Positions 14,030 through 32,663 of a stretch of 64,000 nucleotides of DNA are shown one piece after another. Where the stretch lies: NCBI GenBank assembly GCA_039648995.1, contig JBBWZH010000059.1, forward strand, positions 801 through 64,800, written 5' to 3'. Every line of letters begins with the position of its first letter. Position 1 is the stretch's first letter. Below the pieces are notes generated by a model, which had not been told where the DNA came from, searched no databases, and worked only from the letters and a program-made list of their open reading frames with translations. A program made the position numbers and the translations under genes. This DNA comes from Mycobacteriales bacterium (GTDB taxonomy: Bacteria > Actinomycetota > Actinomycetes > Mycobacteriales > CADCTP01).

Positions 14030-14035
14030 CGGCCC

Positions 14036-16079: not shown

Positions 16080-19000
16080 TCAGCGGGCGGCGGCCGCCGC
16101 GATCAGCGGCATGCCGTGCGCGGCGGCGATCCCGCCGGCCCGGGCCAGCAGCGCGGCGGCGTCGGCCGGCTCGCCGCGGGCAGCCGCGCACCGGCCGGCG
16201 ACCAGCAGGCCCTCGGCGAGCGGGCCGACCCAGCCGGCCCGCTCAGCGGCGGCCAGCAGCGGGGCCAGCGCGGCCAGCGCGCGGTCCGGTTCGGACAGTG
16301 CCAGCCAGGCGCGGGCCACCGCGAGGTAGGCGTCCGAGCCCATCAGCCAGGCCGCGCCGTCCGGCGCGACGATCCGGTCCAGCATCGCGCCGGCACGGTC
16401 CACATCGGACCGCAGCCCGGTCGCCTCGGCCAGCGGGCCGAGGCAGCGCAGCCGGTACGCCTCCGCGCCGTTGCGCTCGGCCACGGCCAGCCCGGCGGCC
16501 AGCACCCGGCCGGCCTCGTGCGGCTCGCCCGCGGCCAGCAGCGTGGCGCCGAGGAAGCCGGCCGCGGTGGCCGTCCACCACGGGTGGCCGCCGGTCGCCG
16601 CGGCCGCCAGCGCCCGCTCGCCACGCGCGAGCGCCGCGTCCAGCCGGCCCCGCAGCCGCTCGATCCAGCCGAGGTGGGCGAGGTACCACGGCTCGTACGC
16701 CAGGTACCCGCTGCGCCGGTTCACCGCCGCCGCACCGTCCACGCCGGACAGCGCGGTCTCCCAGTCACCGGCCGCCAGCGCCGGCAGCGCCGCCTCGAAC
16801 ACCGTCCACTGCAGCCGCCGGAGGTCGCCGCCCCGGCGCAGCAGCGGTTCCAGCTCGGCCAGCACCGGGGCCAGCCCAGCCAGGTCGCCGGTGTACGCGT
16901 GCGCGGTCTTCAGCCCGTCCAGCGCGTATGCCAGCGCCATGTCGTCCCGGCTGGCCCGGGCCGCGACCAGCGCCCGGCCGGCCCGCTGGTGCGCCCAGTC
17001 GAAGCGCAGCCGGCCGGTCGACAGCACCGCGAGCCGGGACTGCAGGTCGGCCTCCATCGTCCGGTCACCGAGCGCCCGGGCCAGCCGGATGCCGGACTCC
17101 AGGTACGGCCAGCAGTCCTGAATGGACCGGCCGCGGGCGATCAGCACGTCGCCGCCGAGTTCCCGCAGGGCCAGCATCTCGTGCCGCTGGTCGCCGGTCT
17201 CCCGGGCCAGTTCGGCCGACCGGGAGTAGTCGTCCCAGGCGCCGGCGTAGTCGGCCAGCGCCTCCCGGGCCCGGCCGCGGACCAGGTACGCCCGCACCAG
17301 CGTCTCCCCGCCGTCGGCCCGGGTCGCGGCGTCCATCGCCTGGCCGAGCAGCCGTTCGGCGTCCGAGAACGCGCAGTGCGCCAGCGCGTTCTCGGCGGCC
17401 AGCAGCCAACCGCGGCCGGCCCGCAGCCACTCGTCGACCGCGGCCGCGTGCGCCGCCATCGCCTCCGGCCGGTCGCCGAGCAGGTCGGCCGCGTGCCGGT
17501 GGTAGGCCACCCGGGTCGGCTCCGGCGTGGTCGCGTACAGCACCTCCTGCACGAGGTCGTTCGCGAACTCGTACGAGCCGCCGGCGACCACCACCAGCGC
17601 CGCCCGTAGCGCCTGCTCGCACCGGCGGGCCGCCTCGACCGGGCGGATGTCGAGCACCCGGGCCAGCAGCGCCGGGTCGAACGGCGGCCCGAGCACCGCG
17701 GCCGCGCGCAGCGCCTCCTCGGCCTCCGGCCCGGCCCGGCGCACCCGGGCGCCGACGGCCGCCTGCAGTGACCCCGGCACGCCGGTCTCGCCGGCGACCA
17801 GCCCGCGCAGCGTCTCGACGACGAACAGCGTGTGGCCGCGGGTCAGCTGGTGCAGCCGCTCGGCCAGCTCGGCCCGGCCGGCCGCGCCGGCCAGCTCCGC
17901 GACCGCGTCCGGCTGCAGCGGGCCGACCTCGACCCGGTCGGCCACGCCGGCCAGCAGCCCTTCGGCGTCCGCGCCCTCCTCGGTACGCAGCGTGGCCAGC
18001 ACCAGCAGCCGGCAGCCGGCCAGGTGCCGGGCCAGGTAGTGCAGGAACTCGACGGTGGCCAGGCCGGCGTTCTGCAGGTCGTCGAGCAGCAGCAGCACCG
18101 GCGCGCGGTCGGTCAGCCGGCGCAGGTACCCGGTCAGCGCCTCGAACGACCGCCGGCGCTGGATCTCCGGCGCGCTCGACTCGGCCGGCGGGTCGCCCAG
18201 CACGGCCGTCAGCTCCGGCACCAGGCCGGCCAGCGCCGGCGCCCACTCGCCGGCCAGCTCCCGCAGCACGGCCGGCGCCAACCGGCCGGCCGGCCCGCGC
18301 ACCGCCTCCACCAGCGGCTGCAGGAACAGCGACCGCTCGGTGTCGTAGCAGCGCGCCTGCAGCACCTGACCGCCGGTGCCGCCGGCCAGCCCGACCGCCT
18401 CGGCCGCCAGCCGGGTCTTCCCGATCCCGGCCACCCCGGTGACCAGCAGCACTCCGGGCCGGCCGGACGCCGCCGCCGACCACGCCCGCACCAGCCGCTC
18501 CCACTGCGCCGCCCGCCCCACCAGCGGCCCACCACCGCCGCCGAACGCGCCAGCCGTCCCGCCGGCCCACCCGCCCGGCCCGGCCAGGCCGGTGCCGTCG
18601 GCCACTCCGGCCCCGGCCCAGTCGGCCAGTCCGGCCACTCCGGCCCCGGCCCAGTCGGCCAACCCGCCCGACCCGGAGCCGGCCGGTCCGGAGCCGGCCG
18701 GTCCGGAGCCGGCAGGCCCGGCGCCGAAGGCGTCGGGAGGGACGCCATTGGACTGACCGCCGGGAACGCCGGGCCCGCCGGTGCCGCCCGGCTTGGTGGC
18801 GCCGCCGGGTGCGGCCTGGTCCTGGTGGCTTCCCCGGATCGGGTGCTCGCGCAGGATCGACAGGTGTAGGGCGCGGAGGTCCGGCGCGGGGTCGACGCCG
18901 AGATCGTCGGCCAGCCGATCACGTAACCGGGCGTACGCGGTGAGCGCCCGGGCCGGCTCGCCGCCGCGCTGGTGGGCGAGCATCAGCAGCCGGTGCGCGG

Positions 19001-19607
19001 GCTCGTCCAGCGGGTCGGTGTCGACCAGCAGTTCGGCGAGCCGGGCCGCGGCGGCCGGTTCGCCCACCGCGAGCGCGGCCGCGGCCGCGCTGTGGCGGGC
19101 CCGGCGCAGCAGGTCGGCCGCCTCCGCCCGGGCCGGGCCGGCCCACTCGGCCGGCTCGTCGGTCAACGCCACGCCGTCGGCGAGCAGCGCGAGCGCCCGC
19201 TGCGCCGCGGCCAGCGCCAGCCCCGGCTGACCGCCGCTGAGCCGGGCCCCGGCCGCGGCCACCGCCCGGGCCGCCTCGTCCAGGTCGATCGCGGCCGCGT
19301 CCCCCAGCCGGTAGCCGGACCCGATGCCCTCCACGACCGGCCCGCCCAGGGTCGCGCGCAGCCGGCTGACCAGGGTCGCGACGTTCTGCGCCGGGTGCCG
19401 CGGCGGCAGGCCGGCCCAGATCTGGTCGACGATCCGGTCGGTCGGCACGACCCGGCCGCGCTGCACCACCAGCAGCGCCAGCAGCTGCCGGGCCTTGCGG
19501 CTGCCGACCTCGGTGCCGGCCAGCAGCCGGCCGTCCCGGAGCACGCCGAACGGGCCGAGCAGGCGGAACGACAGCCCCTGGGCGCCGGCCGCCCCGTCCA
19601 TCGTCAC
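16080..19607 (-). CDS. SARP (OmpR-type wHTH + BTAD) / AAA ATPase / TPR large regulator
   Basis: FRLLGPFGVLRDGR...SRKARQLLALL wHTH, then a BTAD region, a Gly/Pro/Ala linker with tandem repeats, the P-loop LLVTGVAGIGKTRLA, and a long helical-repeat C-terminus. The start is GTG 19607 or ATG 19601. Confidence 0.85.
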   Translation of the reverse strand: MTMDGAAGAQGLSFRLLGPFGVLRDGRLLAGTEVGSRKARQLLALLVVQRGRVVPTDRIVDQIWAGLPPRHPAQNVATLVSRLRATLGGPVVEGIGSGYRLGDAAAIDLDEAARAVAAAGARLSGGQPGLALAAAQRALALLADGVALTDEPAEWAGPARAEAADLLRRARHSAAAAALAVGEPAAAARLAELLVDTDPLDEPAHRLLMLAHQRGGEPARALTAYARLRDRLADDLGVDPAPDLRALHLSILREHPIRGSHQDQAAPGGATKPGGTGGPGVPGGQSNGVPPDAFGAGPAGSGPAGSGPAGSGSGGLADWAGAGVAGLADWAGAGVADGTGLAGPGGWAGGTAGAFGGGGGPLVGRAAQWERLVRAWSAAASGRPGVLLVTGVAGIGKTRLAAEAVGLAGGTGGQVLQARCYDTERSLFLQPLVEAVRGPAGRLAPAVLRELAGEWAPALAGLVPELTAVLGDPPAESSAPEIQRRRSFEALTGYLRRLTDRAPVLLLLDDLQNAGLATVEFLHYLARHLAGCRLLVLATLRTEEGADAEGLLAGVADRVEVGPLQPDAVAELAGAAGRAELAERLHQLTRGHTLFVVETLRGLVAGETGVPGSLQAAVGARVRRAGPEAEEALRAAAVLGPPFDPALLARVLDIRPVEAARRCEQALRAALVVVAGGSYEFANDLVQEVLYATTPEPTRVAYHRHAADLLGDRPEAMAAHAAAVDEWLRAGRGWLLAAENALAHCAFSDAERLLGQAMDAATRADGGETLVRAYLVRGRAREALADYAGAWDDYSRSAELARETGDQRHEMLALRELGGDVLIARGRSIQDCWPYLESGIRLARALGDRTMEADLQSRLAVLSTGRLRFDWAHQRAGRALVAARASRDDMALAYALDGLKTAHAYTGDLAGLAPVLAELEPLLRRGGDLRRLQWTVFEAALPALAAGDWETALSGVDGAAAVNRRSGYLAYEPWYLAHLGWIERLRGRLDAALARGERALAAAATGGHPWWTATAAGFLGATLLAAGEPHEAGRVLAAGLAVAERNGAEAYRLRCLGPLAEATGLRSDVDRAGAMLDRIVAPDGAAWLMGSDAYLAVARAWLALSEPDRALAALAPLLAAAERAGWVGPLAEGLLVAGRCAAARGEPADAAALLARAGGIAAAHGMPLIAAAAAR
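18600..18719 (-). repeat. in-frame tandem repeats in the regulator linker
   Basis: A 33-bp unit occurs twice (18600-18665, encoding LADWAGAGVAG). A 15-bp unit GGAGCCGGCCGGTCC occurs three times (18675-18719, encoding GPAGS). Confidence 0.8.
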
Positions 19608-19797
19608 CGCGTCACCCCCGCTCGCGCCGATTCTGCCGGTCCGGGCGGTGCGCGGCCGGTGCCTGCCGGGAAAACCGGCGCAGCGTCCGGATCGACCGGA
19701 CCACCGTCACCTGACGTTACGGCGACCCGAAGGCGGCCTTAGACCGCGTGCGGATCGTTGCCGCCGAACCGCTATCAACCGAAGGTGAGGGGACGGG

Positions 19798-20403
19798 ATG
19801 AGCGTACGTCAGGCGTCACGATGGCGCCGGCTGTGGTGGGGGCGCCGGGTCGGCACCGCGCTGGTACTGGCCGCGGGCGTGGCCGGCGGGGTGGCGTTGG
19901 CCGCCGTGCCAGCGCAGGCAGCGTCCGGGGTGTTCATCCACCCGGAGTGGGTCGACGGGTGCCCGGGCTGCCCGGGGCCGATCTTCCTGGTGCAGCGTGA
20001 GCTGGACCAGCGCGCGGTCGTCGCGGTAACCGGCAAGGTGCAGGCCGGCCTGTCCGGGCTGGTCACGGCCCTCCATCAGCGAGACCCGGCCGCCGCCAAG
20101 AAACTGCACGAGGGCGCGATCGTCAACCTGACCGGGGCGGCGAAGCTGACCGGCTACGCGGGGTTCAGCGCGGTGGCCGACGGCGACGACGTGGAGCTGT
20201 GCCCGCGCTGGTGGCCGTGGCCGATCCCGGGTCCGCCGCCGTGGCGGGACGTGGAGGGCGACCTGGCCGATGGCATCACGCTGATCGGGCAGGCGGCGAT
20301 CACCAAGGACGTCGACGTGGCCGCCCAACTGCGGGCCAAGGGGATCGAGGAACTGGACGCCGGAGCGGCGGGCCTGGACGCCTACCAGGGCTGCACCGGC
20401 TGA
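19798..20403 (+). CDS. small secreted protein with N-terminal CPGCPG motif (unknown family)
   Basis: ATG after GAGGGGA. Signal peptide ...VALAAVPAQA/AS. The mature N-terminus is GVFIHPEWVDGCPGCPGPIF. The 3' end overlaps the convergent regulator gene by 22 nt. Confidence 0.65.
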   Translation: MSVRQASRWRRLWWGRRVGTALVLAAGVAGGVALAAVPAQAASGVFIHPEWVDGCPGCPGPIFLVQRELDQRAVVAVTGKVQAGLSGLVTALHQRDPAAAKKLHEGAIVNLTGAAKLTGYAGFSAVADGDDVELCPRWWPWPIPGPPPWRDVEGDLADGITLIGQAAITKDVDVAAQLRAKGIEELDAGAAGLDAYQGCTG

Positions 20404-23087
20404 CCGGTGGTAGAGCCGGCCGGTGCCGGGCCGGTGGGGGGCGGCGACTCTGGCGGGTCGCCGCCCCCGGCATCCCGGTCGGCGTTCCAGCGGCCGTCGG
20501 CAGCGCCACGGCGGGCGGCGGCACCACGGCGGGGAGCCGGAGCCGGCATGGCGGCCGGCTCCACACCGATCTCGGCCATCCGGGCGGTGTAGCCGCAGTG
20601 CGCGCGGCGGGCGTCGCCATACCGGCCGGCCGCGGCCAGCACCGACACCATGGCCAGGTGCGCCGGCTCGTCGTACGGGTCGTGGTCGAGCAGCCGGATC
20701 AGCACGAGCACGGCCTGGTCGGTGTCACCGGCCGCGCCGGCGTCCTCGGCCTGCGCGCGCAGCACGGCCAGGTGCGCGGCGCGGGCCTCCTCGCGCAGCG
20801 CGTGCGCCCAGTCCGCGTACACGTCTTCCTCCAGCACGTCGCCGCGGTAGGTCGCGGCGGCCCGACGCAGCAGCGCGCCGGCCACTGAGGTGCCGGCCGA
20901 CCGGGCCCGCAGTCCATTGATCGCATCACGCAGAAAGGTCTCAACATCAACGTCAAGCCGATTCAGGGCGAGCGTCACGCTGCCGTCCTCGGTGACGACG
21001 TAGTGGCCGGCCGGGTGGGTGCGGTCCGGGTCGAGCACCCGCCGGACCGTCGCCAGCGCCACCGAGAGCCGGTTGGCCAGCACGTCCGGCTCGTGCTCGT
21101 CCGGCCAGAGCAGCTCGACCAGCCGGCCGCGCGGGATGGCCCGCCCGCGCCGGGCCAGCAGGATCTTCAGCAGCTCCCGGGCCTTGCGCGACTGCCACTC
21201 GGTGTCGGCCACCGGCTCCCCGCCGCGGTTGATCTCGAACCGGCCGAGCACCCGGACGGCCACCCGCGGCGGCGCGCACCGGTACACGGCGGCGAGCAAC
21301 CCGGCGCCATGCGGCCCGGGCACCCGGACGCCGAGCCCGGCCAGCTCGGCCGCCGCCGCATCGGCCTCGCCGGCTGCCTCCCCGGACGAGTCGGCGGGGG
21401 CGGCCGAGCCGAACAGCCGGCCCAGCGCGTACCGGACCCGGAACGCGCCGACCGGATGGCCGATCTCCCGCCAGACCGAGCGCGCCTCCGTCAGCAGCCA
21501 GCGGGCCCGGTCGTCGGGCTGCCCCGGCTCGGGCCGGGCCGACCACTGGCAGAGCGCCTCCAGCTCCAGCGCCTCAGCCAGCGTCGCCCGGTCCCGGCGC
21601 GGGCCCGCGGCCGCGGCGACCCGGCGGGCCAGCGCCTGCGCCTCGGTCGCGGACCCGTCCTGCAGGTGCAGCCAGCCCACGGTCAGCTCGACGGCCGGCT
21701 GCCGGTCGCCGGCGTCGCGGAGCGCCTGCCGGGCCAGCGTCCAGGCGGCCGGCAGGTCGTGCGCGGCCAGCACCCGGGCCAGGCCGGTGACCGCGGGCAC
21801 CCAGGCCTGCGAGTCGGTCGCCTCGCCGGTGGCGATCGCCTCCTCATAGGCCGCCCGGGCCAGCGCCAGGTCACCCCGTTCCCGGTACGCGTCGCCCAGC
21901 CCGACCAGCGCGTACGCGATCATGCGGCTGCCGATCGACTGGAACGCCGCCTTGCTCCGCTCGAACGCGGCCACCGCGTCGCCGAACTGCCCGAGCTGCA
22001 GCAGGCACAGGCCGAGGTTGCTGCAGCACAGGCCGACCGCGACGACGAACCCGATCCGCTCGGCCAGCCGGGCGGCGTGGTCCAGCTCGATCACGGCCTC
22101 GGCCGGACAGCCCTCCTCCAGGAAATGCGAGCCGCGGTTGGCCCTGATCCGGACCACCTGCAGCAGGTCGCCGGCCCGCTCGGCGGCGTCGAGGGCGAGC
22201 GCCCAGTGCCGGCCGTTGCCGCTGCGGTCGCCGGCCAGCTTCGCGGCCATCGCGAGCGCGGAGTGCGCGGCGGCGAGCGCGGCGCCGTCACCGCAGCGGG
22301 CCGCGGCCGCCCGGGCCCGGCCGGCGAACCGGTCGCAGCCGGCCCGGTCGCCGAGCATCCAGCAGGCGGTGGCCGACCACGCCAGCAGCAGCGCCTCGTC
22401 CAGCGTGTCCTCCCGGTCCAGCCGGCCCCGGGCGTACGCGGCCAGCGCAGCGCCGGGTTCGCCGGCCTGGTAGCTGACCAGCCCCATCCGCCAGGCGACC
22501 GCCGCCGGCATCGGCCGCCCACCGTCCACCGGCGCCACCGGCCCCCGCCCGGGCCCGCTGCCCACCGGCGCCGCCGGCGCTGCCGGCTCCTGGCTGGGCC
22601 CGCTGCCCACCGGGGCCACTGGGCCCCGACCGGGCCCACCGTCCACCGGCGCCTCCGGCCCCCGACCGGGCCCGCCGTCCGCCGGGCGCTGGTCAGGCAC
22701 GGCGTCGGTGGACGGGGTGGGCCCGGCGGCACCGCGGGGCGTCGCGGTGCCGCCGGACGTCTCGGCGGCCTGCCGGCAGATCGCCAGCGCACCCTCAGCG
22801 TCGCCGCGGACCTGGCGGGCGTTGGCGAGCAGGGTCAGCCGGGCCGGGGTGAGGGCGGCCGGCGGTAGCGCGCCCACCGCCTCCTCGACCGCGAGCAGGT
22901 GGCCGGCGGCGAGGATGCGGCTGCCGGAGCCGTCCAGGATGCGCCCGACCTCGGCCGGGTCACCGCCGGCGACGGCCGACCGCAGCGCGGCCGCGAGGTC
23001 TTCGTACGGCAGGTCGGGGTAGTGCGCGGCGGGCAGCGCAGTGGGGTCGGGGCCGAGGGTTGCCCACTCGGCGAGCGGCGTCACCAT
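20382..23087 (-). CDS. TPR-containing regulator with C-terminal SARP module (wHTH + BTAD)
   Basis: ATG at 23087. The N-terminal region is followed by a Pro/Gly repeat linker, TPR-like repeats, then VRVLGRFEINRGGEPV...WQSRKARELLKILL (wHTH) and a BTAD-like end (RLLDHDPYDEPAHLAMVSVLAAAGRYGDARR). Confidence 0.75.
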   Translation of the reverse strand: MVTPLAEWATLGPDPTALPAAHYPDLPYEDLAAALRSAVAGGDPAEVGRILDGSGSRILAAGHLLAVEEAVGALPPAALTPARLTLLANARQVRGDAEGALAICRQAAETSGGTATPRGAAGPTPSTDAVPDQRPADGGPGRGPEAPVDGGPGRGPVAPVGSGPSQEPAAPAAPVGSGPGRGPVAPVDGGRPMPAAVAWRMGLVSYQAGEPGAALAAYARGRLDREDTLDEALLLAWSATACWMLGDRAGCDRFAGRARAAAARCGDGAALAAAHSALAMAAKLAGDRSGNGRHWALALDAAERAGDLLQVVRIRANRGSHFLEEGCPAEAVIELDHAARLAERIGFVVAVGLCCSNLGLCLLQLGQFGDAVAAFERSKAAFQSIGSRMIAYALVGLGDAYRERGDLALARAAYEEAIATGEATDSQAWVPAVTGLARVLAAHDLPAAWTLARQALRDAGDRQPAVELTVGWLHLQDGSATEAQALARRVAAAAGPRRDRATLAEALELEALCQWSARPEPGQPDDRARWLLTEARSVWREIGHPVGAFRVRYALGRLFGSAAPADSSGEAAGEADAAAAELAGLGVRVPGPHGAGLLAAVYRCAPPRVAVRVLGRFEINRGGEPVADTEWQSRKARELLKILLARRGRAIPRGRLVELLWPDEHEPDVLANRLSVALATVRRVLDPDRTHPAGHYVVTEDGSVTLALNRLDVDVETFLRDAINGLRARSAGTSVAGALLRRAAATYRGDVLEEDVYADWAHALREEARAAHLAVLRAQAEDAGAAGDTDQAVLVLIRLLDHDPYDEPAHLAMVSVLAAAGRYGDARRAHCGYTARMAEIGVEPAAMPAPAPRRGAAARRGAADGRWNADRDAGGGDPPESPPPTGPAPAGSTTGQPVQPW
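22518..22680 (-). repeat. nested in-frame direct repeats (Pro/Gly linker)
   Basis: The roughly 42-nt block CCCACCGTCCACCGGCGCC(A/T)CCGGCCCCCG(C/A)CCGGGCCCGC occurs at 22518 and 22635 (period 117 nt). It encodes PVDGGPGRGP(V/E)AP-type units. Confidence 0.75.
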
Positions 23088-23137
23088 GCCCGGTGCCCGG
23101 CACGCGCCGGGCTGCGGTTGAGCAGAGCCATGGCAAT

Positions 23138-23212
23138 GTTGTACGAAGCCCCGGCTGCAGGGCAGTTGTGCCCGTTGTCCCCGGCAGGCGGTCGCCACAA
23201 CGTTTTCACAAC
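23138..23212. promoter_or_regulatory. mirrored CACAAC/GTTGTN hexamer repeats in divergent promoter region
   Basis: GTTGTA 23138, GTTGTG 23165, GTTGTC 23174, CACAAC 23196, CACAAC 23207. The last two are spaced exactly 11 bp. The region is an AT-rich island between genes starting at 23087(-) and 23296(+). Confidence 0.45.
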
Positions 23213-23295
23213 ATGCCCGGTCCACGATCTCTTCGGACCGGGGGGACGGTCTGTCGCTGCCGAAAGACGGTGGCGGCCGGGAACAGGGGGGTTAG

Positions 23296-23805
23296 GTGCG
23301 AACGGTTCTTCGGCGGCTCGGTGCGGTGTTCGCCGTGACGAGCGGAATAGCAGCGAGTGTGGTCGGTGTGGGGGCCGGCCAAGCTCAGGCGGCGTGCGAC
23401 GACGCGCGGCTGGTGAGCATCGAGGGGTACCGGGCCGCCGAAGGCACCGCGGTCCAGAAGGGCCAGCTCACCCCGTTCATCTTCACCGTGACGAGCTCGG
23501 CCTGCCCGCAGGAGGGGTCGGTGCAGTTCGAGACCGTCGCGTACACGGCCGACCGGACCGACTTCGTCAGTCAAGCCGGAGCGGTCTCGTTCAAGCCTGG
23601 CGATCCCAGCAAGCAGGTGATTGTCGTTCAGGTCGTGCCGGACTCGAAACCGGAGCGGAACGAGTGCTTCTCGGTGCGGCTGTCGAAGCCGGCCGGCCGG
23701 ATCGTGATACCCGAGGGCCGTGGTGAGGCGGCCGGGATCATCGTCGACGACGACACCCCGGCCAACAAGACGCCGATCGGCGGCGGCTTCATATGCTCGG
23801 AGTAA
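23296..23805 (+). CDS. secreted single Calx-beta-like domain protein
   Basis: GTG start after GGGGGG. Signal peptide ...GAGQAQA/A. The blocks EGTAVQKGQLTPFIFTVT...VSFKPGDPSKQVIVVQVVPDSKPERNECFSVRLS resemble a Calx-beta repeat. Confidence 0.65.
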   Translation: MRTVLRRLGAVFAVTSGIAASVVGVGAGQAQAACDDARLVSIEGYRAAEGTAVQKGQLTPFIFTVTSSACPQEGSVQFETVAYTADRTDFVSQAGAVSFKPGDPSKQVIVVQVVPDSKPERNECFSVRLSKPAGRIVIPEGRGEAAGIIVDDDTPANKTPIGGGFICSE

Positions 23806-26800
23806 CCAGCGCGGCCCGCACGCCCCGGGCCGCCGCCCGGGCGGCTCCGCTATCCGGCCGGGTCTCCGGCCCGCGCAGCGTCGCGGCCGAGTTCCGGTGC
23901 CGGGCGGCGAGCGAGGCGTTGCCGGCCAGCTCCTCCAGGTCGCCCATGCTCGCGTAGATGGCCGCCTCCTCGTGCCGGTCCGGGATGCGCACGCGCAGCA
24001 CGAGCGCGGCGCGCAGCCAGTCCCGGGCGGCGGCGAGGTCGCCGGCGGCGACGTAGGCCCGGCCGAGGCGGGCCCCGGCCACCGCCTCCAGGTGCTGGTC
24101 GCCCACCTCCCGGCTGAGCTGGTGCGCCTGCCAGGCGCTGTCCCGGGCGGCGGCTGGGTCGGCGGCGTCCAGGTGGGTCAGCCCGATCTCGGTCAGCGTC
24201 TCCGCCTCGTACCGGCGCTCGCCCATGCCCCGGCGCAGCGCCAGCGCCTGGGCGAAGCAGTCCAGGGCCTGCCGGTGGTCGCCGCGGCGGCGGTACGCCT
24301 CGCCCAGGTTGTGCAGGATGCCTGCCTCCACCCGGGTGTCGCGGTCGTCCCGGGCCAGCGCCAGGCCCTGGTCCAGGTAGGCGATGCCGCGGTCGACCTC
24401 GTCGATGCGGGTGTGCGCGCAGCCGAGGTTGTTCAGGGCCAGCCGCATGCCCAGCCGGTGCCCGTTCTGGGTATGCACCTCCAGCGCCCGCTCGCAGGCC
24501 ACGATCGCCTCGTGGTAGCGCCGCAGCTCGCCGAGCGCGGCGGCGATGTTGTTGTAGGCGTGGCCCTCGCCGCGCCGGTCGCCGCTGGCCCGCATGAGCT
24601 CCAGCGCGGGCCGCAGGTGCTCCAGCGCCTCGGCGTGCCGGCGGGCGGCGATGCAGGCGACGCCGAGCCCGCTGAGCATCAACCCTTCGACGGCGGGGTC
24701 GGCCAGCTGCCGCGCGGCGGCCAGCCCGGACCGGTACATCGCGACCCGGTCACCCCAGTGCCCGCGCGACTCGAAGTACCCGGCCAGCAGGTAGCACAGC
24801 TGCCAGGCCACCGTCTGGTACCCCTCGGCCGCGGCATAGTCCACAGTGGACAGCAGGTTGGCGTGCTCGCCGTCGAGGAAGGCGAGCGCGGCGGCCGGTG
24901 CCGGGTCGAACGGCTCGTTGCCGGGCGCGAACCGGGACGGCGGGACGACCCGGTCCCGGCCCGGGTCCAGCGTGCGGTTCACCGCGTCGGCCACGGCGAG
25001 ATACCAGTCCAGGATGCGGGTCACCGCGGCGGCCCGGGCCGGGTCCGGCTCCTGCGCGCGGGCCCGGTCGGCCGCGTACAGCCGGATCAGGTCGTGGAAC
25101 CGGTACCGGTCGCCGCCGAGGTCCTCGATCAGGTGCGCCGCGGCCAGCTCGCGGACGCCGGCCTGCCCCACCGCGGCCGGCACGCCCGCCGCCGCCGCGG
25201 CCAGCGGGACGGTGAAGCTGGTGCCCGGCTGCAGGCCGAGCACCCGGAACAGCCGGGCGGCGGGCTGGCTGAGCGCGCCGTACGCGGTGGCGAACACCGC
25301 GCGCAGGCCACGCGAGTCACCCTCCACCGAGAGCGCGTCCAGCCGATCCTGCCCGACGAGCTCGGCGACCAGGTCGTCGATCTGTCGGCGCGGCCGGGCG
25401 GCCAGCTTCGCCGCGGCCACCCGCAGCGCCAGCGGCAGCCGTCCGCACAGGTCGACCAGCTTGGCGGCGGCGCCCGCCTCGGCCCGCACCCGGTCGGCAC
25501 CGACCACCTGGTCGAGCAGCGTGGTCGCCTCGCTGGCGGACAGCACGCCCAGGTCGACCGGGCGGACCGCGTGGTAGATGGGCAGCGCGGCCAGGTCGTG
25601 CCGGCTGGTCACCACCAGCAGGCTGGCCTCACCGGTCGGCACCAGCGGCAGCACCTGGTCGGCGCTGCCGGCGTTGTCGGCGACGAGCAGGATGCGCTTG
25701 TCGTGCACCAGCGACCGGTAGCCGCCGATCTGGTCGGCCAGCTCGGCCGGGATGCGGTCGGCCGGCACGCCGAGCGCGCGCAACGCCTGCGCCAGCGCGT
25801 CGGCCGGCGCCAGCGCGGAAGCCGTGTCGTGCCCGCGCAGGTCGAGGTACAGCTGTCCGTCCGGGAAGTCGGCACGGATGCTGCGGCTCCACTGCACGGC
25901 GAACGCGGTCTTGCCGACGCCGGCCGGGCCCCGGATCACCGCGATCCGCGGGCCGGGGTGCGGCTCGGCCAGCCAGCCGTCCAACCCGGCCAGCTCGGCG
26001 GTGCGGCCGGCGAAGTGACCCACCGGCGGCGGCAGCTGGGCCGGCGCGGGCAGTGCGGCGGCCGGTGGCGCGGCGGCCGGTGGCACGGCGGCGGGCGGGC
26101 GGCGGCTCGGCGTGGCCGGACCGCCGTAGCCCAGTTCCAGCGCCGGCTCGCCGCGCAGGATCGCGGTGTGCAGCCGCCGCAGAGCCGGACCCGGGTCGGC
26201 GCCGAGCTCGTCGGCCAGCCGGGCCCGCAGCCGCTCGTAGCGGTCCAGCGCGTCCGCCGGGCAGCCGCTCCGGTAGAGCGCCAGCATCAGCAGCCCGACG
26301 AGCCGTTCCCGGGTGGGGTAGCGGACCAGCAGCCGGTCCAGCTCGGCGACCGCCGCCGCATGCTGGCCGAGGCGCAGCCGGACCTCCCAGAGCTCCTCGG
26401 CCGCCGCCAGCCGCAGCCCGTGCAACCGCTCCACCTCCGTCCGCACCCAGCCGCCGGCCGGCCCGTCGGCCAGCGCGTCGCCGCGCCAGAGGCCGAGTGC
26501 CGCGGCCAGCCGGGTGGTGGCGCGGTCCAGCCGGCCGGCGGCGACGTCGTCCCGGGCGGCCCGCACCTCGTCCTCGAACCGGAGCGCGTCGACCGCGTCG
26601 CGGGGGAGCGCGAGCAGGTAGCCGGGCTCCCTGGTGCGCAGCGTCTCGGGCAGGCCACAGTCGGCCAGCGCCTTGCGGACCCGGGCCGCGTGGCTGTGCA
26701 GGGTGCGGACCGCGGTGCGCGGCGGGTCGTCGGGCCAGAGCGCGTCGACCAGCCGCGGGGTGGCGACGATCGTGCCGGCGTGCAGCGCGAGCATGCCGAC

Positions 26801-26905
26801 CAGCGCCCGCTGCCGGCCACCGATCAGCCCGGCCGGCCCACCCGGCCCGGTGACGGCGATGGAACCGAGCAGCCGGACGTCTGCCTCACGCGCCGGCGAA
26901 ACCAT
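23789..26905 (-). CDS. AfsR/SARP-family regulator: wHTH + BTAD + NB-ARC + TPR
   Basis: ATG at 26905. VRLLGSIAV...RQRALVGMLAL wHTH, then BTAD (LLVRYPTRERLVGLLMLALYRSG), P-loop GPAGVGKTAFA, LLVADNA, LPLALRVAA, and C-terminal TPR units. It overlaps 23296..23805 by 17 nt (convergent). Confidence 0.88.
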   Translation of the reverse strand: MVSPAREADVRLLGSIAVTGPGGPAGLIGGRQRALVGMLALHAGTIVATPRLVDALWPDDPPRTAVRTLHSHAARVRKALADCGLPETLRTREPGYLLALPRDAVDALRFEDEVRAARDDVAAGRLDRATTRLAAALGLWRGDALADGPAGGWVRTEVERLHGLRLAAAEELWEVRLRLGQHAAAVAELDRLLVRYPTRERLVGLLMLALYRSGCPADALDRYERLRARLADELGADPGPALRRLHTAILRGEPALELGYGGPATPSRRPPAAVPPAAAPPAAALPAPAQLPPPVGHFAGRTAELAGLDGWLAEPHPGPRIAVIRGPAGVGKTAFAVQWSRSIRADFPDGQLYLDLRGHDTASALAPADALAQALRALGVPADRIPAELADQIGGYRSLVHDKRILLVADNAGSADQVLPLVPTGEASLLVVTSRHDLAALPIYHAVRPVDLGVLSASEATTLLDQVVGADRVRAEAGAAAKLVDLCGRLPLALRVAAAKLAARPRRQIDDLVAELVGQDRLDALSVEGDSRGLRAVFATAYGALSQPAARLFRVLGLQPGTSFTVPLAAAAAGVPAAVGQAGVRELAAAHLIEDLGGDRYRFHDLIRLYAADRARAQEPDPARAAAVTRILDWYLAVADAVNRTLDPGRDRVVPPSRFAPGNEPFDPAPAAALAFLDGEHANLLSTVDYAAAEGYQTVAWQLCYLLAGYFESRGHWGDRVAMYRSGLAAARQLADPAVEGLMLSGLGVACIAARRHAEALEHLRPALELMRASGDRRGEGHAYNNIAAALGELRRYHEAIVACERALEVHTQNGHRLGMRLALNNLGCAHTRIDEVDRGIAYLDQGLALARDDRDTRVEAGILHNLGEAYRRRGDHRQALDCFAQALALRRGMGERRYEAETLTEIGLTHLDAADPAAARDSAWQAHQLSREVGDQHLEAVAGARLGRAYVAAGDLAAARDWLRAALVLRVRIPDRHEEAAIYASMGDLEELAGNASLAARHRNSAATLRGPETRPDSGAARAAARGVRAALVTPSI

Positions 26906-27046: not shown

Positions 27047-27886
27047 TCAGCGCGCCGGCCGGCCGGCGGTGGCCGGCGCCGGGTGGCGACCGACCGCCGG
27101 CACCTCGGCCAGCTCGATGCCGAACCGGTCCCGGTAGGCGGCCAGCACCTCGGCGTCCGTGCCGAGGTCCCGCTCGGTCCGCGCCTCGCCGGCGGTCTCG
27201 ATCAGCCGCCGGCCGGCGAGCGTGAGCTGCCCCTCCGCCGTCGGCAGCGAGCAGGTCAGCGACGTGGTGAAGTGCGACGTCGGCGAGGTCTGGTGCCACC
27301 AGCAGCCGGCCTCGAAGTCGCCCAGCCGGCGCGGTCGCAGCTCCAGCCGGTACTGCGTCACGCCGTCCTGGCAGACCTCCAGGTCACCCCAGTCGCCGAG
27401 GTCGGCGTCGGCCGCCGCGGGGCGGACCTCGAACCGGCCGACCGGGTCAGCCTGCCCGCCGCGCGCGTCCAGCCGCAGCGGGTGCCGGCTGAACCGGCCG
27501 AAGCCGACGTCCACCAGCCAGGGCCCGGCGTCCGGCCCGGGCTCCGGCGTCCGCACCAGCAGGGCCAGATGGTCGTACGGGATGCCCAGCCGGTCCGCGC
27601 CGACGCGGGCGGCGAGCAGCGTGACGTGGTACCCGAGGGCGGCCAGCAGGGCGCCGAACACGCCGTTCAGCTCATAGCAGAACCCGCCGCGGCGGCGTTC
27701 GACGACCTTGGACAGCAGTTCCGGCTCGGCCAGCACGATCGGGTTGCCGAGGTGGATGTCCAGGTTCTCGAACGGCACGGTCAGCACGTGCCGCCGCTGC
27801 AGTTCCCGCAGCGCCGCCGCGGTCGGCGCCACCGGCCCGGCGATCCCGATCCGGGCCAGGTATGCCCGCACGCCCGCGCTGTCCAC
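27047..27886 (-). CDS. arylamine N-acetyltransferase (NAT family)
   Basis: YLARIG...LRELQRRHVLTVPFENLDIHLG and the catalytic Cys block RRRGGFCYELNG. I chose the GTG start at 27886 because GGAGG lies 5 nt upstream. The longer track ORF start is unlikely. Confidence 0.85.
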   Translation of the reverse strand: MDSAGVRAYLARIGIAGPVAPTAAALRELQRRHVLTVPFENLDIHLGNPIVLAEPELLSKVVERRRGGFCYELNGVFGALLAALGYHVTLLAARVGADRLGIPYDHLALLVRTPEPGPDAGPWLVDVGFGRFSRHPLRLDARGGQADPVGRFEVRPAAADADLGDWGDLEVCQDGVTQYRLELRPRRLGDFEAGCWWHQTSPTSHFTTSLTCSLPTAEGQLTLAGRRLIETAGEARTERDLGTDAEVLAAYRDRFGIELAEVPAVGRHPAPATAGRPAR

Positions 27887-28039
27887 CCGCACCTCCACCG
27901 CCGGCCGTCGACATTGGACTCTAGTCAGGCAGGGCCGCCTGCCGCCCACCATCGGACGCTGGTCGTACGCCCCTGGCCGGGCTACCAACCGACGGGCTGC
28001 CGGGCCCGCACCCGGCGGCCCGCCGCCGCGGGCCGCCGG

Positions 28040-28693
28040 TCAGGTGATCATCGTGACGGTGAAGTCCCAGTCGTCCAGGGTGAGCGTGCCGGTGCCGATG
28101 ACGGCGACCTGCGCCTTGATCGTGTAGCCGACGCCGCCGGGGAAGCCGTCGGCGGTCCGCTGCACCGACTGGTTGCCGGCCGGCGCACCGGCCGTGGCGA
28201 GTACGAAGTCGGCGCCGGCCGCTGGCTTGAGCTCCGACACACCGGTGGGCGCGACCACGACCGCCCGGAACGAGCACCAGGTCGTGGCGTCGCCGGCGCA
28301 CAACGTCTCGCCGGAGAACACCGCGTTGAACGTGGCGCTGCTGCCGGCGACCGGGCTGAACGCGGTGGTGCCACCGGGGACGTCGACCCAGGTGCGGCTG
28401 CCCGTGGCCCAGGCGGTGGCCAGCTGCACGCCCTTGAACTCCCAGATGGTCCGGGCCGGCGCCACCCCGGGGTGGGTCGGCGGCGCCGTGGTCGGCGGCA
28501 CGGTCGTCGGCGCCGCCCCCGCCAACTGGCGGACCGCACCCGCGCCGGCCGCCGGTCCGCCGGCCGCCGCACCCGCGCCGGCTGGCGCACCGGCGGCCAG
28601 CGAGCTGCCGGCCACCGAGCCGGCGGCGATGACGAGCACCGCCAGCGCCGCCGCCAGCGGCGTGCCGGCGGTTCTGTTCACGTTCCTGAGCAT
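28040..28693 (-). CDS. secreted beta-rich protein (unknown family)
   Basis: ATG at 28693 after GAGGGGGA. Signal peptide MLRNVNRTAGTPLAAALAVLVIAAGSVAGSSLAA, then an Ala/Gly/Pro linker and a roughly 140-aa domain. Confidence 0.65.
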   Translation of the reverse strand: MLRNVNRTAGTPLAAALAVLVIAAGSVAGSSLAAGAPAGAGAAAGGPAAGAGAVRQLAGAAPTTVPPTTAPPTHPGVAPARTIWEFKGVQLATAWATGSRTWVDVPGGTTAFSPVAGSSATFNAVFSGETLCAGDATTWCSFRAVVVAPTGVSELKPAAGADFVLATAGAPAGNQSVQRTADGFPGGVGYTIKAQVAVIGTGTLTLDDWDFTVTMIT

Positions 28694-28924
28694 CGCGTCC
28701 CCCTCATGGATGTTGCCGGCCCGGGCGGGCCGCAGCGAAATCCTGCGAACCGCGGCACCCCGGCGGGCCGGATGTTGCACAGGGCTGGACGGCAGTGCAC
28801 ACCGTGCGGCCGGGCCGGGTCGTGCCCTTTCGGCTGTCCTGTCGGATCAACGGCGGTCTGCCCCGGCCGGCTACGGTAGGTAGGTATTGGTGCCACCGGC
28901 CGGTGCCGGCACCCCGGGGGAGCT

Positions 28925-31696
28925 GTGATCGCAGGCACAAGCGGGGAACCCGCCGGGCTGACCCGGGAGCGGCTGGCCACGGTGGCCGGCGTCACGGAGC
29001 TGGCCGAGGTGCTGCGCGTGCTGCGGCGGCGGGAAGCGCGCCGCCGCGCGGGCTCCGAGCTGACCTACCGCGAGCTCGCCGGCAGCACCGGCTGGTCGCA
29101 TGCGATCGTCGGGCAGTACCTCACCGGCAAGGTGCTGCCGCCGACCGACCGGTTCGACGTGCTGGTGCGGCTGCTCGGCGCCAGCCCGGTCGAGCAGGGC
29201 GCTCTGGCCACCGCTCGGGACCGGGTCGCGGAGGGGCGCCGTGCCCAGCCCACCGGGCACCAACCCGGCACCCGACCCGTCGGCCGGGCCGGCGGCGGGC
29301 GGCCGGTGCCGGCGCAGCTGCCGGCCGACCCGCCCGGCTTCACCGGCCGGGCCGCCGAACTGTCCGAACTGGACGGTCTGCTGGCGGCCGCGGACAGCCC
29401 GTCCGCACTGGTGATCTCGGCGGTGTCCGGCATGGCCGGGGTGGGCAAGACGGCGCTCGCCGTGCGCTGGGCGCACCGGGTCACGGGGCAGTTCCCGGAC
29501 GGCCAGCTGTACGTGAACCTGCGCGGCTACGACCCGGAACAGCCGGTGCCGCCGGGCGACGCGCTGGCCGGTTTCCTGCGCGCGCTCGGCGTGCCGTGCG
29601 CGGAGATCCCGGCCGAGCTGGCCGAGCGCGGGGCCCGGTTCCGCACCGAGCTCAGCGGCCGGCGGGTGCTGGTCGTGCTGGACAACGCGGCCGGGGTCGA
29701 GCAGGTGCGGCCGCTGCTGCCGGGCAGCCCGTCCTGCGCCGTGCTGGTCACCAGCCGCGACTCCCTGGCCGGCCTGGTCGCCGCGCACGGCGCGCACCGC
29801 CTCCGGCTGGACCGGCTGCCCGAACCGGACGCGATCGCCCTGCTGCGTCGGCTGATCGGTGCCCCGGTCGGCGCGCAGCCGGCCGCCGCCGCCCGGCTCG
29901 CCGCCCAGTGCGAGCGGCTGCCGCTGGCGCTGAGGGTGGCCGCCGAGCTGGCCGCCGCCCGCGCGCCGACGCCGCTGGCCGAGCTCGTGTCCGAACTGGA
30001 CGATCTGCGCCGGCGGCTGGACCTGCTCGACGCCGGAGGTGACCCGCGGGCGGCCGTCCGGGCGGTGCTCTCCTGGTCGTACCGGCACCTGCCGGCCGAC
30101 ACCGCGCGGACGTTCCGGCTGCTCGGCCTGCACCCCGGCGCCGACTGGGACCCGGCCGCGGTGGCCGCGCTCACCGGCCACGAGCCCTGGCACAGCCGGG
30201 CTCTGCTCGACGCGCTGGCCAGGGCGCACCTGATCGAGCCGGCCGCGCCCGGCCGGCACGGCATGCACGACCTGCTGCGCGGGTACGCCGCGGAGCTCGC
30301 CGCCGGCACCGACCCGCCAGCCAGCCGGCAGGCGGCGCTCACCGGCCTGCTCGACCACTACCTGGCCGGTGCCGCCGCCGCGATGGATACCCGCTACCCC
30401 GCCGAGGCGCACCGCCGCCCCCGCCCCACACCGTCCACTCCGGACGGCACACCGTCCACTGCGTACGGCGGACTGTCCACTCCGGACGCGGCACAGGAGT
30501 GGCTGGACGCGGAGCGGGCGAACCTGATCGCGGTGGCCGCGCACGCCGCCGAGCACGGCTGGCCGGCCCACGCGATCGGCCTGGCCGGCACGCTGTTCCG
30601 CTACCTGGATGCCGGTGGACGCACCAGCGACGCGCTGGCCCTGCACACGCACGCGCTGTTCGCGGCCGAGCTGACCGGCGACGCGGCAGCGCAGGCGAAC
30701 GCGCTGACCAGCCTCGGCGGCGTCCACTGGCGGCAGGGCCGGTACGGGCCGGCGGCCGCGCACGTCGAGCGGGCGCTGGCCCTGCACCGGCGGCTGGGTG
30801 ACCGGGCCGGCGAGGCGCGGGCGCTGGCCAACCTCGGCCGCGTCCTGCAGCGGCGGGGCGAGCTGGAACCCGCGGCCGCCCGGCTGCGGCAGGCGCTGGC
30901 GCTGTTCACCGCGCTCGGCGACCGGCTGGGTGAGGCACGCACGCTCGACCACCTCGGGTTCGTCGCGGCCCGGCAGGGCCTGCTGCGGCAGGCGGAAGCC
31001 CAGTTGCGGCAGGCGCTGGCGCTGTTCGGCGCGCTCGGCGACCGGCTGGGTGAGGCCGAGTCGCTCGGCCACCTCGGCGCGGTACGGGCCAGGCAGGGCC
31101 GGTACCCGGCCGCGGCCGAGGATCTGCGGCAGGCGCTGACCCGCTACCGCGACTGCGGGCACCCCGACGGCGAGGCGTACGCGCTGGCCAACCTCGGCGC
31201 GGTCACCGGCCGGCTGGGCGACCCGGACGCGGCCCACCAGTTGGACCAGGCCCGCTGCCTCTACCAGCGCGCCGGTGACCGGCTCGGCGAGGCGCAGGTG
31301 CTGGTCCACCTGAGCGAGCTGGCCGCCGGGTCGGGCGACTGCGGGCCGGCCCGGGGCCAGGCGGTCCGGGCGCTGGAGCTGTTCCGGGCGGCCGGCGACC
31401 GGGCCGGCGAGGCCGAGGCACTGACCGCGCTCGGCGAGGCGCTGCACGAGTCCGGCGACCATGCGGCGGCGGCCGATCGGCATGCCGAGGCCGCCGAGCT
31501 GGCCGGGCGGACCGGCGACCGGTACCAGCGGTCCCGCGCGCTGGACGGGCTGGCGCGGGCCGGGCACGCCACCGCCGGCCGGTCCGGCGGGCATCCACCG
31601 GCCGGTTACCGGGAGTCGACCGGCCCGCCGGACGCGCCGGACACCTTCGCGTTGCTCGGCGCGCCCGGCGCCGGCGGCCCGTCCACCGCTGTCTGA
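28925..31696 (+). CDS. HTH (XRE-like) + NB-ARC + TPR STAND regulator
   Basis: GTG start after GGGGGAG. HTH LTYRELAGSTGWSHAIVGQYLTGK, P-loop GMAGVGKTALA, VLVVLDNA, LPLALRVAA, and C-terminal TPR units (GDRxGEAxxLxxLG repeated). The NB-ARC is clearly paralogous to 23789..26905. Confidence 0.88.
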   Translation: MIAGTSGEPAGLTRERLATVAGVTELAEVLRVLRRREARRRAGSELTYRELAGSTGWSHAIVGQYLTGKVLPPTDRFDVLVRLLGASPVEQGALATARDRVAEGRRAQPTGHQPGTRPVGRAGGGRPVPAQLPADPPGFTGRAAELSELDGLLAAADSPSALVISAVSGMAGVGKTALAVRWAHRVTGQFPDGQLYVNLRGYDPEQPVPPGDALAGFLRALGVPCAEIPAELAERGARFRTELSGRRVLVVLDNAAGVEQVRPLLPGSPSCAVLVTSRDSLAGLVAAHGAHRLRLDRLPEPDAIALLRRLIGAPVGAQPAAAARLAAQCERLPLALRVAAELAAARAPTPLAELVSELDDLRRRLDLLDAGGDPRAAVRAVLSWSYRHLPADTARTFRLLGLHPGADWDPAAVAALTGHEPWHSRALLDALARAHLIEPAAPGRHGMHDLLRGYAAELAAGTDPPASRQAALTGLLDHYLAGAAAAMDTRYPAEAHRRPRPTPSTPDGTPSTAYGGLSTPDAAQEWLDAERANLIAVAAHAAEHGWPAHAIGLAGTLFRYLDAGGRTSDALALHTHALFAAELTGDAAAQANALTSLGGVHWRQGRYGPAAAHVERALALHRRLGDRAGEARALANLGRVLQRRGELEPAAARLRQALALFTALGDRLGEARTLDHLGFVAARQGLLRQAEAQLRQALALFGALGDRLGEAESLGHLGAVRARQGRYPAAAEDLRQALTRYRDCGHPDGEAYALANLGAVTGRLGDPDAAHQLDQARCLYQRAGDRLGEAQVLVHLSELAAGSGDCGPARGQAVRALELFRAAGDRAGEAEALTALGEALHESGDHAAAADRHAEAAELAGRTGDRYQRSRALDGLARAGHATAGRSGGHPPAGYRESTGPPDAPDTFALLGAPGAGGPSTAV

Positions 31697-31814
31697 CCGC
31701 GTCCGGCCGCGGCTGACATCCGGGGCGTGCCGGCCCGGCGCGGGCCACGATCTCGTCCGTCCAGCGGCCCCGCGCCGCCCCGGCCTCGCGGCCGGTCAGC
31801 AGATGGAGGAGACC

Positions 31815-32663
31815 ATGAGACACCGCACAACCCTCGGACGGGTGCTGCTCGGAGCGGTCGCCGCGACCGCCGTGCTCGGCCTCCCGGCCGGCCCCGCGAC
31901 GGCCGCGCCGGCGGCCGCGCCGGCCGCCGGCCCGGTCGGCGTCGCCGGCGCGGCCCCGGCGGCGGGCCAGGAGATCGCCCGGGTCACCGGCAACGGCGTC
32001 ACGGTCGTGTTCGTCAGCACCGCCGGCCCCGCCGGCCGGCCGGAGATCGCGCTGTTCGCGCGGGGCTCGCTGCGCGGCCCGGTGTCGCCGGTGCCGGCGC
32101 TGCTCGCCCAGCGGCTCACCTCGCAGGAGATGTACCTGACGCTCGCGGGCCGTGGCGCGGTGGCGCCGGCCGCGCTGGCCGGGCTGCAGGCGGCCGAGGC
32201 CACCGAGCTGGGCCGGGACGCGACCGTCCGGGCCGGCGTCCTGCCGCCGGCCGCCGCGACGAACAGCGTCACGTCCTGCCAGAGCCGCCTGTTCGGGGAC
32301 ATCTCCGACTGGGCCGGGGTCGGGCTGTGGTCGAACAAGGGCGGGGTGGCGTACCCGTCCGGCTCGCAGGTCCAGTACGTCGGCGGCATCTCCACCTACG
32401 AGACCCGCAACGCCGTCGGGTTCGCCGGCTGCAACGCCAGCGCCAACCAGAACCTGACCCTGGACTACGCGTACAACCAGCGGTTCAACAGCCTCGGCTG
32501 GCAGCAGAGCGGGACGTTCCCGGTCGGCCCGGGCGGCTGGGGCGGCTGGTACTACAAGTGGCTCAAGACGGTGAACGGCGTCCCGCACGGCGCCTCGTAC
32601 AAGATCCACGGGTCCAGCGCCGGAGCGTTCGAGCTGGTCACCGGCGAGTGGTTCACGATCTGA
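31815..32663 (+). CDS. secreted protein (unknown family)
   Basis: ATG at 31815 after GGAGGA (alternative ATG at 31803). Signal peptide MRHRTTLGRVLLGAVAATAVLGLPAGPATA. The C-terminal domain is rich in Trp/Tyr/Gly. Confidence 0.65.
   Translation: MRHRTTLGRVLLGAVAATAVLGLPAGPATAAPAAAPAAGPVGVAGAAPAAGQEIARVTGNGVTVVFVSTAGPAGRPEIALFARGSLRGPVSPVPALLAQRLTSQEMYLTLAGRGAVAPAALAGLQAAEATELGRDATVRAGVLPPAAATNSVTSCQSRLFGDISDWAGVGLWSNKGGVAYPSGSQVQYVGGISTYETRNAVGFAGCNASANQNLTLDYAYNQRFNSLGWQQSGTFPVGPGGWGGWYYKWLKTVNGVPHGASYKIHGSSAGAFELVTGEWFTI

Follow-up and report, generated by a model that had tools for sequence, protein, structure and literature searches.

Two putative AfsR-afsS-like regulator/target cassettes with exported-protein targets lie side by side in an uncultured Mycobacteriales lineage

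The window analysed here, a stretch of 64,000 nucleotides (~75% G+C) belonging to contig C86 of an uncultured soil Mycobacteriales bacterium, contains an island of four large regulators (R1 to R4) and four small proteins with signal peptides (S1 to S4). Judged from sequence comparison, this island probably consists of two dedicated regulator/target cassettes of the AfsR-afsS type, juxtaposed and having exported proteins as their targets: module A, made of S1, R2, S2 and R3, and module B, made of S3, R4 and S4. The observations behind this reading are the gene content, the domain architectures, the conserved linkage and the occurrence of conserved, genome-unique boxes with the geometry of sites for SARPs (Streptomyces antibiotic regulatory proteins). 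The genome (G000) is a 7.26-Mb metagenome-assembled genome (MAG) that is 78% complete; G001 denotes its congener (complete, 10.1 Mb), other G-numbers genomes of the same family and L-numbers contigs. Gene calls were checked by GC3 frame analysis and domains were assigned by Pfam and NCBIfam searches, yielding the following features (wHTH, winged helix-turn-helix; TPR, tetratricopeptide repeat).

16080-19607, minus strand: R1, 1175 aa, with wHTH, BTAD, AAA_16 and TPR_MalT domains in a SARP-LAL layout (Pfam, NCBIfam).
19717-19758, plus strand: S1 promoter element, three 11-nt-phased units followed by GCG and the -10-like hexamer GATCGT.
19798-20403, plus strand: S1, 201 aa, secreted-type with signal peptide (from the translation).
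20382-23087, minus strand: R2, 901 aa, TPR first, wHTH and BTAD C-terminal (Pfam).
23138-23179, minus strand: (C/T/G)ACAAC hexamers on the R2 strand (GTTGTA at 23138, GTTGTG at 23165, GTTGTC at 23174).
23196-23228, plus strand: putative SARP-type box of the S2 promoter, 11 + 11 bp direct repeats, CGGTC and hexamer CACGAT.
23296-23805, plus strand: S2, 169 aa, Calx-beta protein with 4 Cys and a signal peptide.
23789-26905, minus strand: R3, 1038 aa, wHTH, BTAD, NB-ARC and TPR, an AfsR-like large SARP.
27047-27988, minus strand: arylamine N-acetyltransferase (NAT), Pfam Acetyltransf_2 at 205.8 bits, between the two cassettes.
28040-28693, minus strand: S3, 217 aa, signal peptide and Ala/Pro/Thr low-complexity linker.
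28925-31696, plus strand: R4, 923 aa, XRE-type HTH_31, NB-ARC and TPR, a STAND regulator.
31815-32663, plus strand: S4, 282 aa, signal peptide.

All eight island genes (R1-R4 and S1-S4) were backed by GC3 frame analysis and domain searches, which bears out the first-pass annotation where it described four large regulators accompanied by four mutually unrelated small signal-peptide proteins. The geometry that it had reported was measured as claimed: R1 and S1 are divergent across 190 bp and R2 and S2 across 208 bp, and the 3' ends of S1 and R2 overlap by 22 nt and those of S2 and R3 by 17 nt. R4 and S3 are likewise divergent (231 bp), and S4 starts 118 bp downstream of R4. The arylamine N-acetyltransferase is present as annotated, and no biosynthetic core gene was detected within ~15 kb of the island, again in agreement with that annotation. 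When genes were called genome-wide and classified with a crude signal-peptide rule, 11% of them were flagged as secreted-like, S1 to S4 all included. Of the five island genes that are not regulators, four are secreted-like against a regional background of ~11%, for which we estimate a chance P of ~6e-4.

The whole island is syntenic in the congener G001, which says little, and it is the contexts beyond the genus that are informative. Because species-representative genomes held R2 relatives at just three loci, the survey was widened to, and leaned on, metagenome contigs. Module A is found again in another genus and on several metagenome contigs, and its flanks change from one occurrence to the next. 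S1 is convergent with an R2 orthologue (60-80% identity) in 8 of 10 extra-genus contexts (G013, G009, L030, L031, L032, L033, L045 and L046), and the gene upstream of S1 varies among aldehyde dehydrogenase (Aldedh), cold-shock (CSD), HTH_31, DUF1330 and PemK-type toxin genes. S2 lies between an R2-like gene, from which it diverges, and an R3 orthologue, with which it converges and overlaps at the 3' end, in all six informative contexts (G013, G009, L044, L045, L046 and L048). Beyond R3 the genes vary again (LLM-like, NAT, NUDIX/RR, RR/HK, RNHCP/P450); NAT is next to R3 in G001 and L044 and absent from that place in G013, L045, L046 and L048, its linkage being confined to this genus and its near relatives.

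Co-occurrence was scored across 15 family genomes other than G000. S2 and R3 orthologues at >=70% identity are both found in exactly three of them (G001, G009 and G013), R3 orthologues at this level being confined to the genomes that have S2, and S1 and R2-family proteins are both found in exactly five (G001, G002, G005, G009 and G013). This suggests that S2 is paired with R3 and S1 with the R2 family, each secreted-protein gene belonging with the regulator on which it converges. The pairing of regulators with secreted proteins proposed in the first-pass annotation is therefore upheld as conserved linkage, and the genes do not assort independently in relatives; by contrast, the conserved partner in module A is the convergent regulator and not the divergent one; R1 is absent outside the genus, and the only orthologue found for it is that of the congener G001.

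The R1 region differs in another context. In the metagenome genome M1 (L030), the aldehyde dehydrogenase gene abuts S1, and the same gene is 12 kb away in the window. Relative to L030, ~12 kb (window 7433-19607) are seemingly inserted between this gene and S1, comprising a mycothiol S-transferase gene, the gene of a 1233-aa subtilase, a cluster of small membrane/redox genes, an Rv2258c-like methyltransferase gene and R1. Further window genes around the island encode, besides the aldehyde dehydrogenase, the mycothiol S-transferase, the subtilase and the methyltransferase, a DUF4032 kinase-like protein and a response regulator.

The promoter regions of module A hold conserved direct repeats. Upstream of S2, the 11-bp repeats CACAACGTTTT and CACAACATGCC (23196-23217) are followed by CGGTC and by the hexamer CACGAT (23223-23228). 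In a comparison of 8 distinct loci, which represent two genera or more, the consensus is CACAACGTTTY-C[A/T]CAAC, with a 17-nt core, CACAACGTTTYC[A/T]CAAC, followed by 10 nt and xAxxxT; L045 and L046 carry CTCAAC in place of CACAAC. This core is invariant in the eight loci, in each of which it precedes S2 and is embedded in variable sequence. The arrangement CACAAC-N5-CACAAC occurs at a single site in the 7.26-Mb assembly, where we estimate 0.13 expected occurrences from the hexamer frequency (0.11 expected within the window). In SARP promoters, direct repeats 11 or 22 bp apart overlap the -35 region, the 3' repeat being ~8 bp from a poor -10, and the 22-bp box of afsS spans -40 to -19 (PMC10936776). 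The S2 promoter matches this SARP/AfsR rule within one base and we regard it as a putative SARP box, which fits the earlier suggestion that the secreted proteins are induced by local regulators.

The S1 promoter has an element that reads TTACGGCgacc / CGAAGGCggcc / TTAGACCgcgt, then GCG and GATCGT, and A2 and T6 of the hexamer are invariant. It is unique in the 7.26-Mb assembly and is kept in 9 loci (A3) whatever the upstream gene, including G005 and G002, or in 11 loci when L045 and L046 are counted. Its TTAnG units are 22 bp apart, except in L045 and L046, which lack the middle unit and in which the spacing is 11 bp; such a switch between 22 and 11 bp is typical of SARP boxes. The element is compatible with, and does not prove, a SARP promoter layout, and is less exact than the S2 box. 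An RNA leader upstream of S1 was also considered and rejected, as no consensus structure emerged (-1.6 kcal/mol) and Rfam gave nothing relevant in 15-36 kb; the block was consequently read as a DNA element. Neither sigma-70 consensus promoters nor intrinsic terminators were predicted between the genes, which fits activator-dependent promoters and convergent transcripts that end inside each other's genes.

On the opposite strand of the R2/S2 spacer, GTTGTA-N21-GTTG(T/C)G is conserved in the window, G013, G009, L045, L046 and L048. These ACAAC hexamers may form the promoter/operator of R2 itself, and the protein that would bind CACAAC may also act on R2. In the sister genus g2, the ATG of R2 lies 6 nt after TACAAC. 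In the window, TACAAC is likewise followed at 6 nt by the start of a 17-codon open reading frame (ORF; 23085-23143, minus strand), the TGA of which overlaps the R2 ATG (ATGGTGA). This arrangement suggests a leaderless start of R2 whose position has shifted between genera. A longer R2 ORF from 23225 was dropped in favour of the start at 23087, the alignment of orthologues giving it no support. SARP-like repeats were also sought at other regulator/secreted pairs of G000; TACCGG at 11-nt spacing on C708 was the candidate retrieved and nothing convincing was found.

Module B was followed through R4 orthologues at 54-69% identity. An S4-like gene is linked to them in L044, L049 and L050, and an S3-like gene, divergent from R4, in L044 and L049. 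L044 has the order NAT-S3-R4-S4-DUF4032 of the window. In L049, S3-like (47% identity), R4-like (62%) and S4-like (63%) genes are flanked by RibD_C/permease genes on one side and by a DNA ligase gene on the other, and in L050 the R4-like and S4-like genes are followed by a glyoxalase gene. L032, L048 and L049 share one sample, and modules A and B are unlinked there if the three contigs come from one genome. The S3/R4 spacer (28700-28920) is conserved between G000 and G001 about as well as coding DNA, with the blocks GGATGTTGCACA...ACGGCAGTGCACA and CCTGTCGGATCAAC and the -10-like hexamer TACGGT. As the modules recur separately and R1 is absent outside the genus, we describe the island as two cassettes with lineage-specific additions, R1 and NAT, and not as the one iterated system that the first-pass annotation had in mind.

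The main rival explanation is a coincidental neighbourhood, in which the targets of the regulators lie far away, for instance in biosynthetic clusters, the secreted-protein genes are filler of an accessory region and the synteny is inherited. We consider it rather improbable, and the observations that count against two dedicated cassettes deserve to be set out together with it. Beside 55 non-focal large regulators of G000, 11.3% of slots are occupied by small secreted-like genes compared to 5.3% genome-wide (p = 0.015). In G001, taken as internal control, small secreted-like genes account for 11%, 11%, 8% and 11% at gene distances of 1, 2, 3 and >=4 from 45 regulators. Because the fraction is the same at all distances, the two-fold excess over the genome average is a regional property of the genomic compartment and not one of adjacency. 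A genome-wide rule placing regulators next to secreted proteins was accordingly rejected, the layout does not hold as a general sensor/exported-protein arrangement among the 50-60 large regulators that the genus has, and adjacency alone is therefore weak evidence. In G005 and G002, S1 stands alone behind an acyl-CoA carboxylase gene, no regulator being next to it, and its upstream element is still kept; a neighbouring regulator is therefore not a strict requirement, and a different factor could bind the S1 box. The gap between repeat and hexamer at S1 is 3-4 nt after the 11-mer compared to ~6 in afsS, a poorer fit than that of S2. Module B rests on three contexts besides G000 and G001, and alignments of 4-5 of its loci give conserved blocks with no clear repeat or palindrome that would mark an operator. 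As uncultured relatives supply many of the contexts, part of the conservation could be inherited synteny, and clusters of regulators are to be expected in a genus with so many paralogues.

Coincidence nevertheless fits poorly with an internal order of the cassettes that is held while the flanks differ in every lineage, with the perfect match, across the 15 genomes, between the distributions of S2 and R3 and between those of S1 and the R2 family, and with a genome-unique SARP-type box at the S2 promoter beside two SARP genes. Moreover, biosynthetic genes lie near the cassettes in none of the contexts examined.

The regulators differ in architecture. Trans_reg_C and BTAD score above the Pfam cut-offs in R1, R2 and R3 and not in R4, which carries HTH_31 instead. 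R3 matches the NCBIfam AfsR model (NF053617) end to end (positions 51-967 of 986) at 470.9 bits, the equivalog cut-off being 1430, and R4 matches its NOD-TPR part alone at 404.5 bits. On these scores R3 and R4 share architecture with AfsR but are not AfsR orthologues. The SARP domain is N-terminal in R1 and R3 but not in R2, which is composed of an N-terminal helical domain, a Pro/Gly repeat linker, a MalT-like TPR region and then the wHTH (residues 633-701) and BTAD (713-846 of 901), with no NTPase. The small, medium, large and SARP-LAL classes of SARPs all have the SARP domain N-terminal, and the reversed order of R2 is not among them (PMC10972967).

R2-family paralogues of 1088-1177 aa, found in family genomes and in a Pseudonocardiales MAG, share the TPR body with C-terminal SARP and have ~400 extra N-terminal residues that are missing in R2, with a weak AAA_22 (P-loop) match in L036. 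At the other extreme, R2 is reduced to its SARP part in L045 (279 aa) and L046 (283 aa) and to a 394-aa open frame in G009, S1 and S2 still being its neighbours. The reversed architecture can thus be seen in what appear to be three stages, ATPase-bearing in the paralogues, and TPR-SARP and SARP-only among the R2 orthologues. In the G001 orthologue (L034, 9983-12890), the ~150-aa N-domain and the TPR-SARP body are in different frames across a Pro/Gly-rich linker, which is either a real frameshift removing the N-domain or an indel in the long-read assembly. Two of seven R2-family paralogues have a small secreted-like gene immediately 3' (L041, 9328-9774 and 10197-10742; L043, 9850-10326). The one in L043 is convergent with the paralogue, as S1 is with R2, and the L041 secreted-like protein is also found in G000 contig C43.

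In this genus, large BTAD regulators have expanded enormously, to 50-60 per genome. G000 has 64 BTAD hits, and G001 has 52 full-length R3 paralogues (E<=1e-100) compared to 0-3 per genome in the sister genus (4-6 Mb); in Streptomyces, at most ~27 SARPs are known (PMC10972967). Given this richness, the clustering of regulators is by itself unremarkable.

S1 to S4 each begin with an n-h-AxA signal peptide, and the assembly contains no paralogue of any of them. Apart from the Calx-beta domain, none shows similarity to named families, and none is AfsS-like. S1 belongs to a family of 17 clusters among 5.8 billion proteins; the CPGCPG motif noted in the first-pass annotation is part of an invariant HPEWxDGCPGCPGP at the mature N-terminus and is accompanied by four invariant Cys (alignment A1). 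Its AlphaFold2 (AF2) model (pLDDT 75) is a predicted four-helix bundle, for which no PDB fold was matched at E<0.1 (best E 0.26). S2 has a single Calx-beta domain, as had been noticed (PF03160, residues 70-153, 34.7 bits against a cut-off of 27, E 2e-8), and each of the 15 clusters of its family carries PF03160. The C-terminal ~125-aa domain of S3, matched by no Pfam family, is shared by a wide family that carries no name, with 177 representatives at 50% clustering, most of them 170-185 aa long. The S4 family has 7 clusters, and its AF2 model (pLDDT 64) combines an alpha/beta N-domain with a C-terminal, jelly-roll-like beta-sandwich, whose matches to jelly-roll binding modules are weak and generic (best E 7e-4, TM 0.45). 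Assigning a function to S1 or S4 from the fold was dropped for these reasons, and the label of effectors that had been attached to proteins of unrecognised sequence finds no backing in predicted folds that point to no function.

Since TPR regulators adjoin genes with export signals, in dedicated and lineage-restricted pairs, a secrete-and-sense system comparable to RRNPP or arbitrium may be envisaged, in which the exported proteins, or peptides cleaved from them, are re-imported and sensed by the neighbouring TPRs for private autoinduction. RRNPP(A) pairs of Firmicutes also place the gene of a TPR transcription factor beside that of an exported product. RRNPP propeptides are typically <100 aa long, the C-terminal peptide being the signal. 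By contrast, the S proteins are 169-282 aa, with mature forms of 140-250 aa conserved over their full length, invariant Cys pairs and domains predicted to be folded and disulfide-bonded, and their regulators are of the STAND/SARP type. The cassettes are devoid of peptide transporter, import or processing protease genes. Furthermore, S1 still neighbours R2 where the TPR sensor is lost (G009, L045 and L046). We therefore judge peptide signalling very unlikely.

A role in conflict with phages, in which NB-ARC/TPR proteins of the Avs or bacterial NLR-like kind sense invaders and the secreted proteins are effectors or toxins, is unlikely too, and the least likely of the readings considered. The NB-ARC and TPR chassis is common to defence NLRs, and the S4 model weakly matches jelly-roll binding domains of binary toxins. 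The window also encodes, at 40-3201 on the plus strand, a 1053-aa TIR, NB-ARC, DUF7779 and TPR protein of NLR-like architecture that has no PADLOC hit. Unlike Avs and NLR-like systems, R1 to R4 have DNA-binding outputs (wHTH and BTAD, or HTH_31) and no enzymatic or death effector; PADLOC yields just a generic TPR model, and the toxin-like matches of S4 are those of a low-confidence model (E ~1e-3, TM 0.2-0.45).

Under the preferred reading of two dedicated cassettes, a cytoplasmic SARP-type activator of module A would bind the 11-bp-phased direct repeats that stand in for the -35 sequence of a promoter which would be weak by itself, and the bound activator would recruit RNA polymerase to one dedicated neighbour gene. 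Two activators are proposed: R3, which combines a TPR sensor with an NB-ARC ATPase switch, and R2, whose forms have the TPR sensor alone or lack any sensor. Their predicted targets would be Sec-exported, namely the Calx-beta protein S2 and, in S1, a disulfide-bonded four-helix bundle. R3 may act on the R2 promoter too, giving a short cascade. Module B would be analogous, the XRE-type HTH-NB-ARC-TPR regulator R4 having two secreted-protein targets, S3 and S4. We infer in this scheme the binding itself, the assignment of regulators to boxes, activation as opposed to repression, the existence of an inducing signal and the roles of the secreted proteins. A bolder version makes module A a signal-to-secretion circuit in which R3 would turn on S2 and R2, R2 would turn on S1, S1 and S2 would cooperate extracellularly (perhaps as a two-part metal/calcium-binding, adhesive or antagonistic factor), the convergent overlaps would provide antisense feedback on the regulators and the 50-60 paralogues would be an array of sensors serving extracellular functions and not antibiotic clusters; in this full form we hold it improbable.

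SARPs have been described almost entirely as activators of streptomycete antibiotic gene clusters. The island had been presented as not a described system, which is overstated, as the proposed mechanism is the known SARP/AfsR one; it would be used here for exported proteins in place of antibiotics. AfsR-like and STAND regulators are found in small conserved cassettes, within which secreted proteins of unknown families are the sole plausible targets nearby. S1, S3 and S4 represent three unnamed secreted families and S2 a lineage-restricted Calx-beta clade, and the regulator that each would have of its own offers a handle on function. The CACAAC repeats, together with R2 or R3, offer a clean box-regulator pairing. 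The island also counsels caution, as an orphan large SARP need not mark a hidden biosynthetic cluster.

Among known systems, MalT/LAL STAND regulators, built of an NTPase, a TPR-like sensor and a C-terminal DNA-binding domain, resemble R2 and its 1088-1177-aa paralogues, R2 having a TPR_MalT hit. They differ in that the output of R2 is a SARP wHTH and BTAD in place of a LuxR HTH and in that R2 has no NTPase module. The SARPs of antibiotic clusters, be they small (ActII-ORF4, RedD), large (PolY, RslR3) or SARP-LAL (PimR, SanG), share the wHTH and BTAD module; R1 has the SARP-LAL layout, the short forms of R2 correspond to small SARPs, and SARP cascades within a single locus also occur among them. 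Unlike these SARPs, the regulators described here have no biosynthetic genes in the examined contexts and are proposed to act on secreted-protein targets, and the long R2 has its sensor N-terminal.

The closest comparison is with AfsR-afsS of Streptomyces coelicolor. R3 has the same SARP, NB-ARC and TPR domains, and its alignment with the AfsR model runs from end to end. In the S2 promoter, two 11-bp repeats overlap the -35 region ~5-6 nt before a poor -10, and one regulator would be matched with one neighbouring target. Differences are nonetheless apparent. R3 falls far below the AfsR equivalog cut-off, and no AfsS-like small cytoplasmic protein is encoded beside the regulators, whose neighbours are proteins of 169-282 aa with signal peptides; S2 is a 169-aa Sec-exported Calx-beta protein whereas AfsS is a 63-aa cytoplasmic sigma-like protein. 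S2 is convergent with R3, their 3' ends overlapping, whereas afsS is co-directional and downstream. Finally, the sequence of the S2 repeats differs, and the unit extends the AfsR-afsS plan by R2, as an additional SARP, and by S1, as an additional secreted target.

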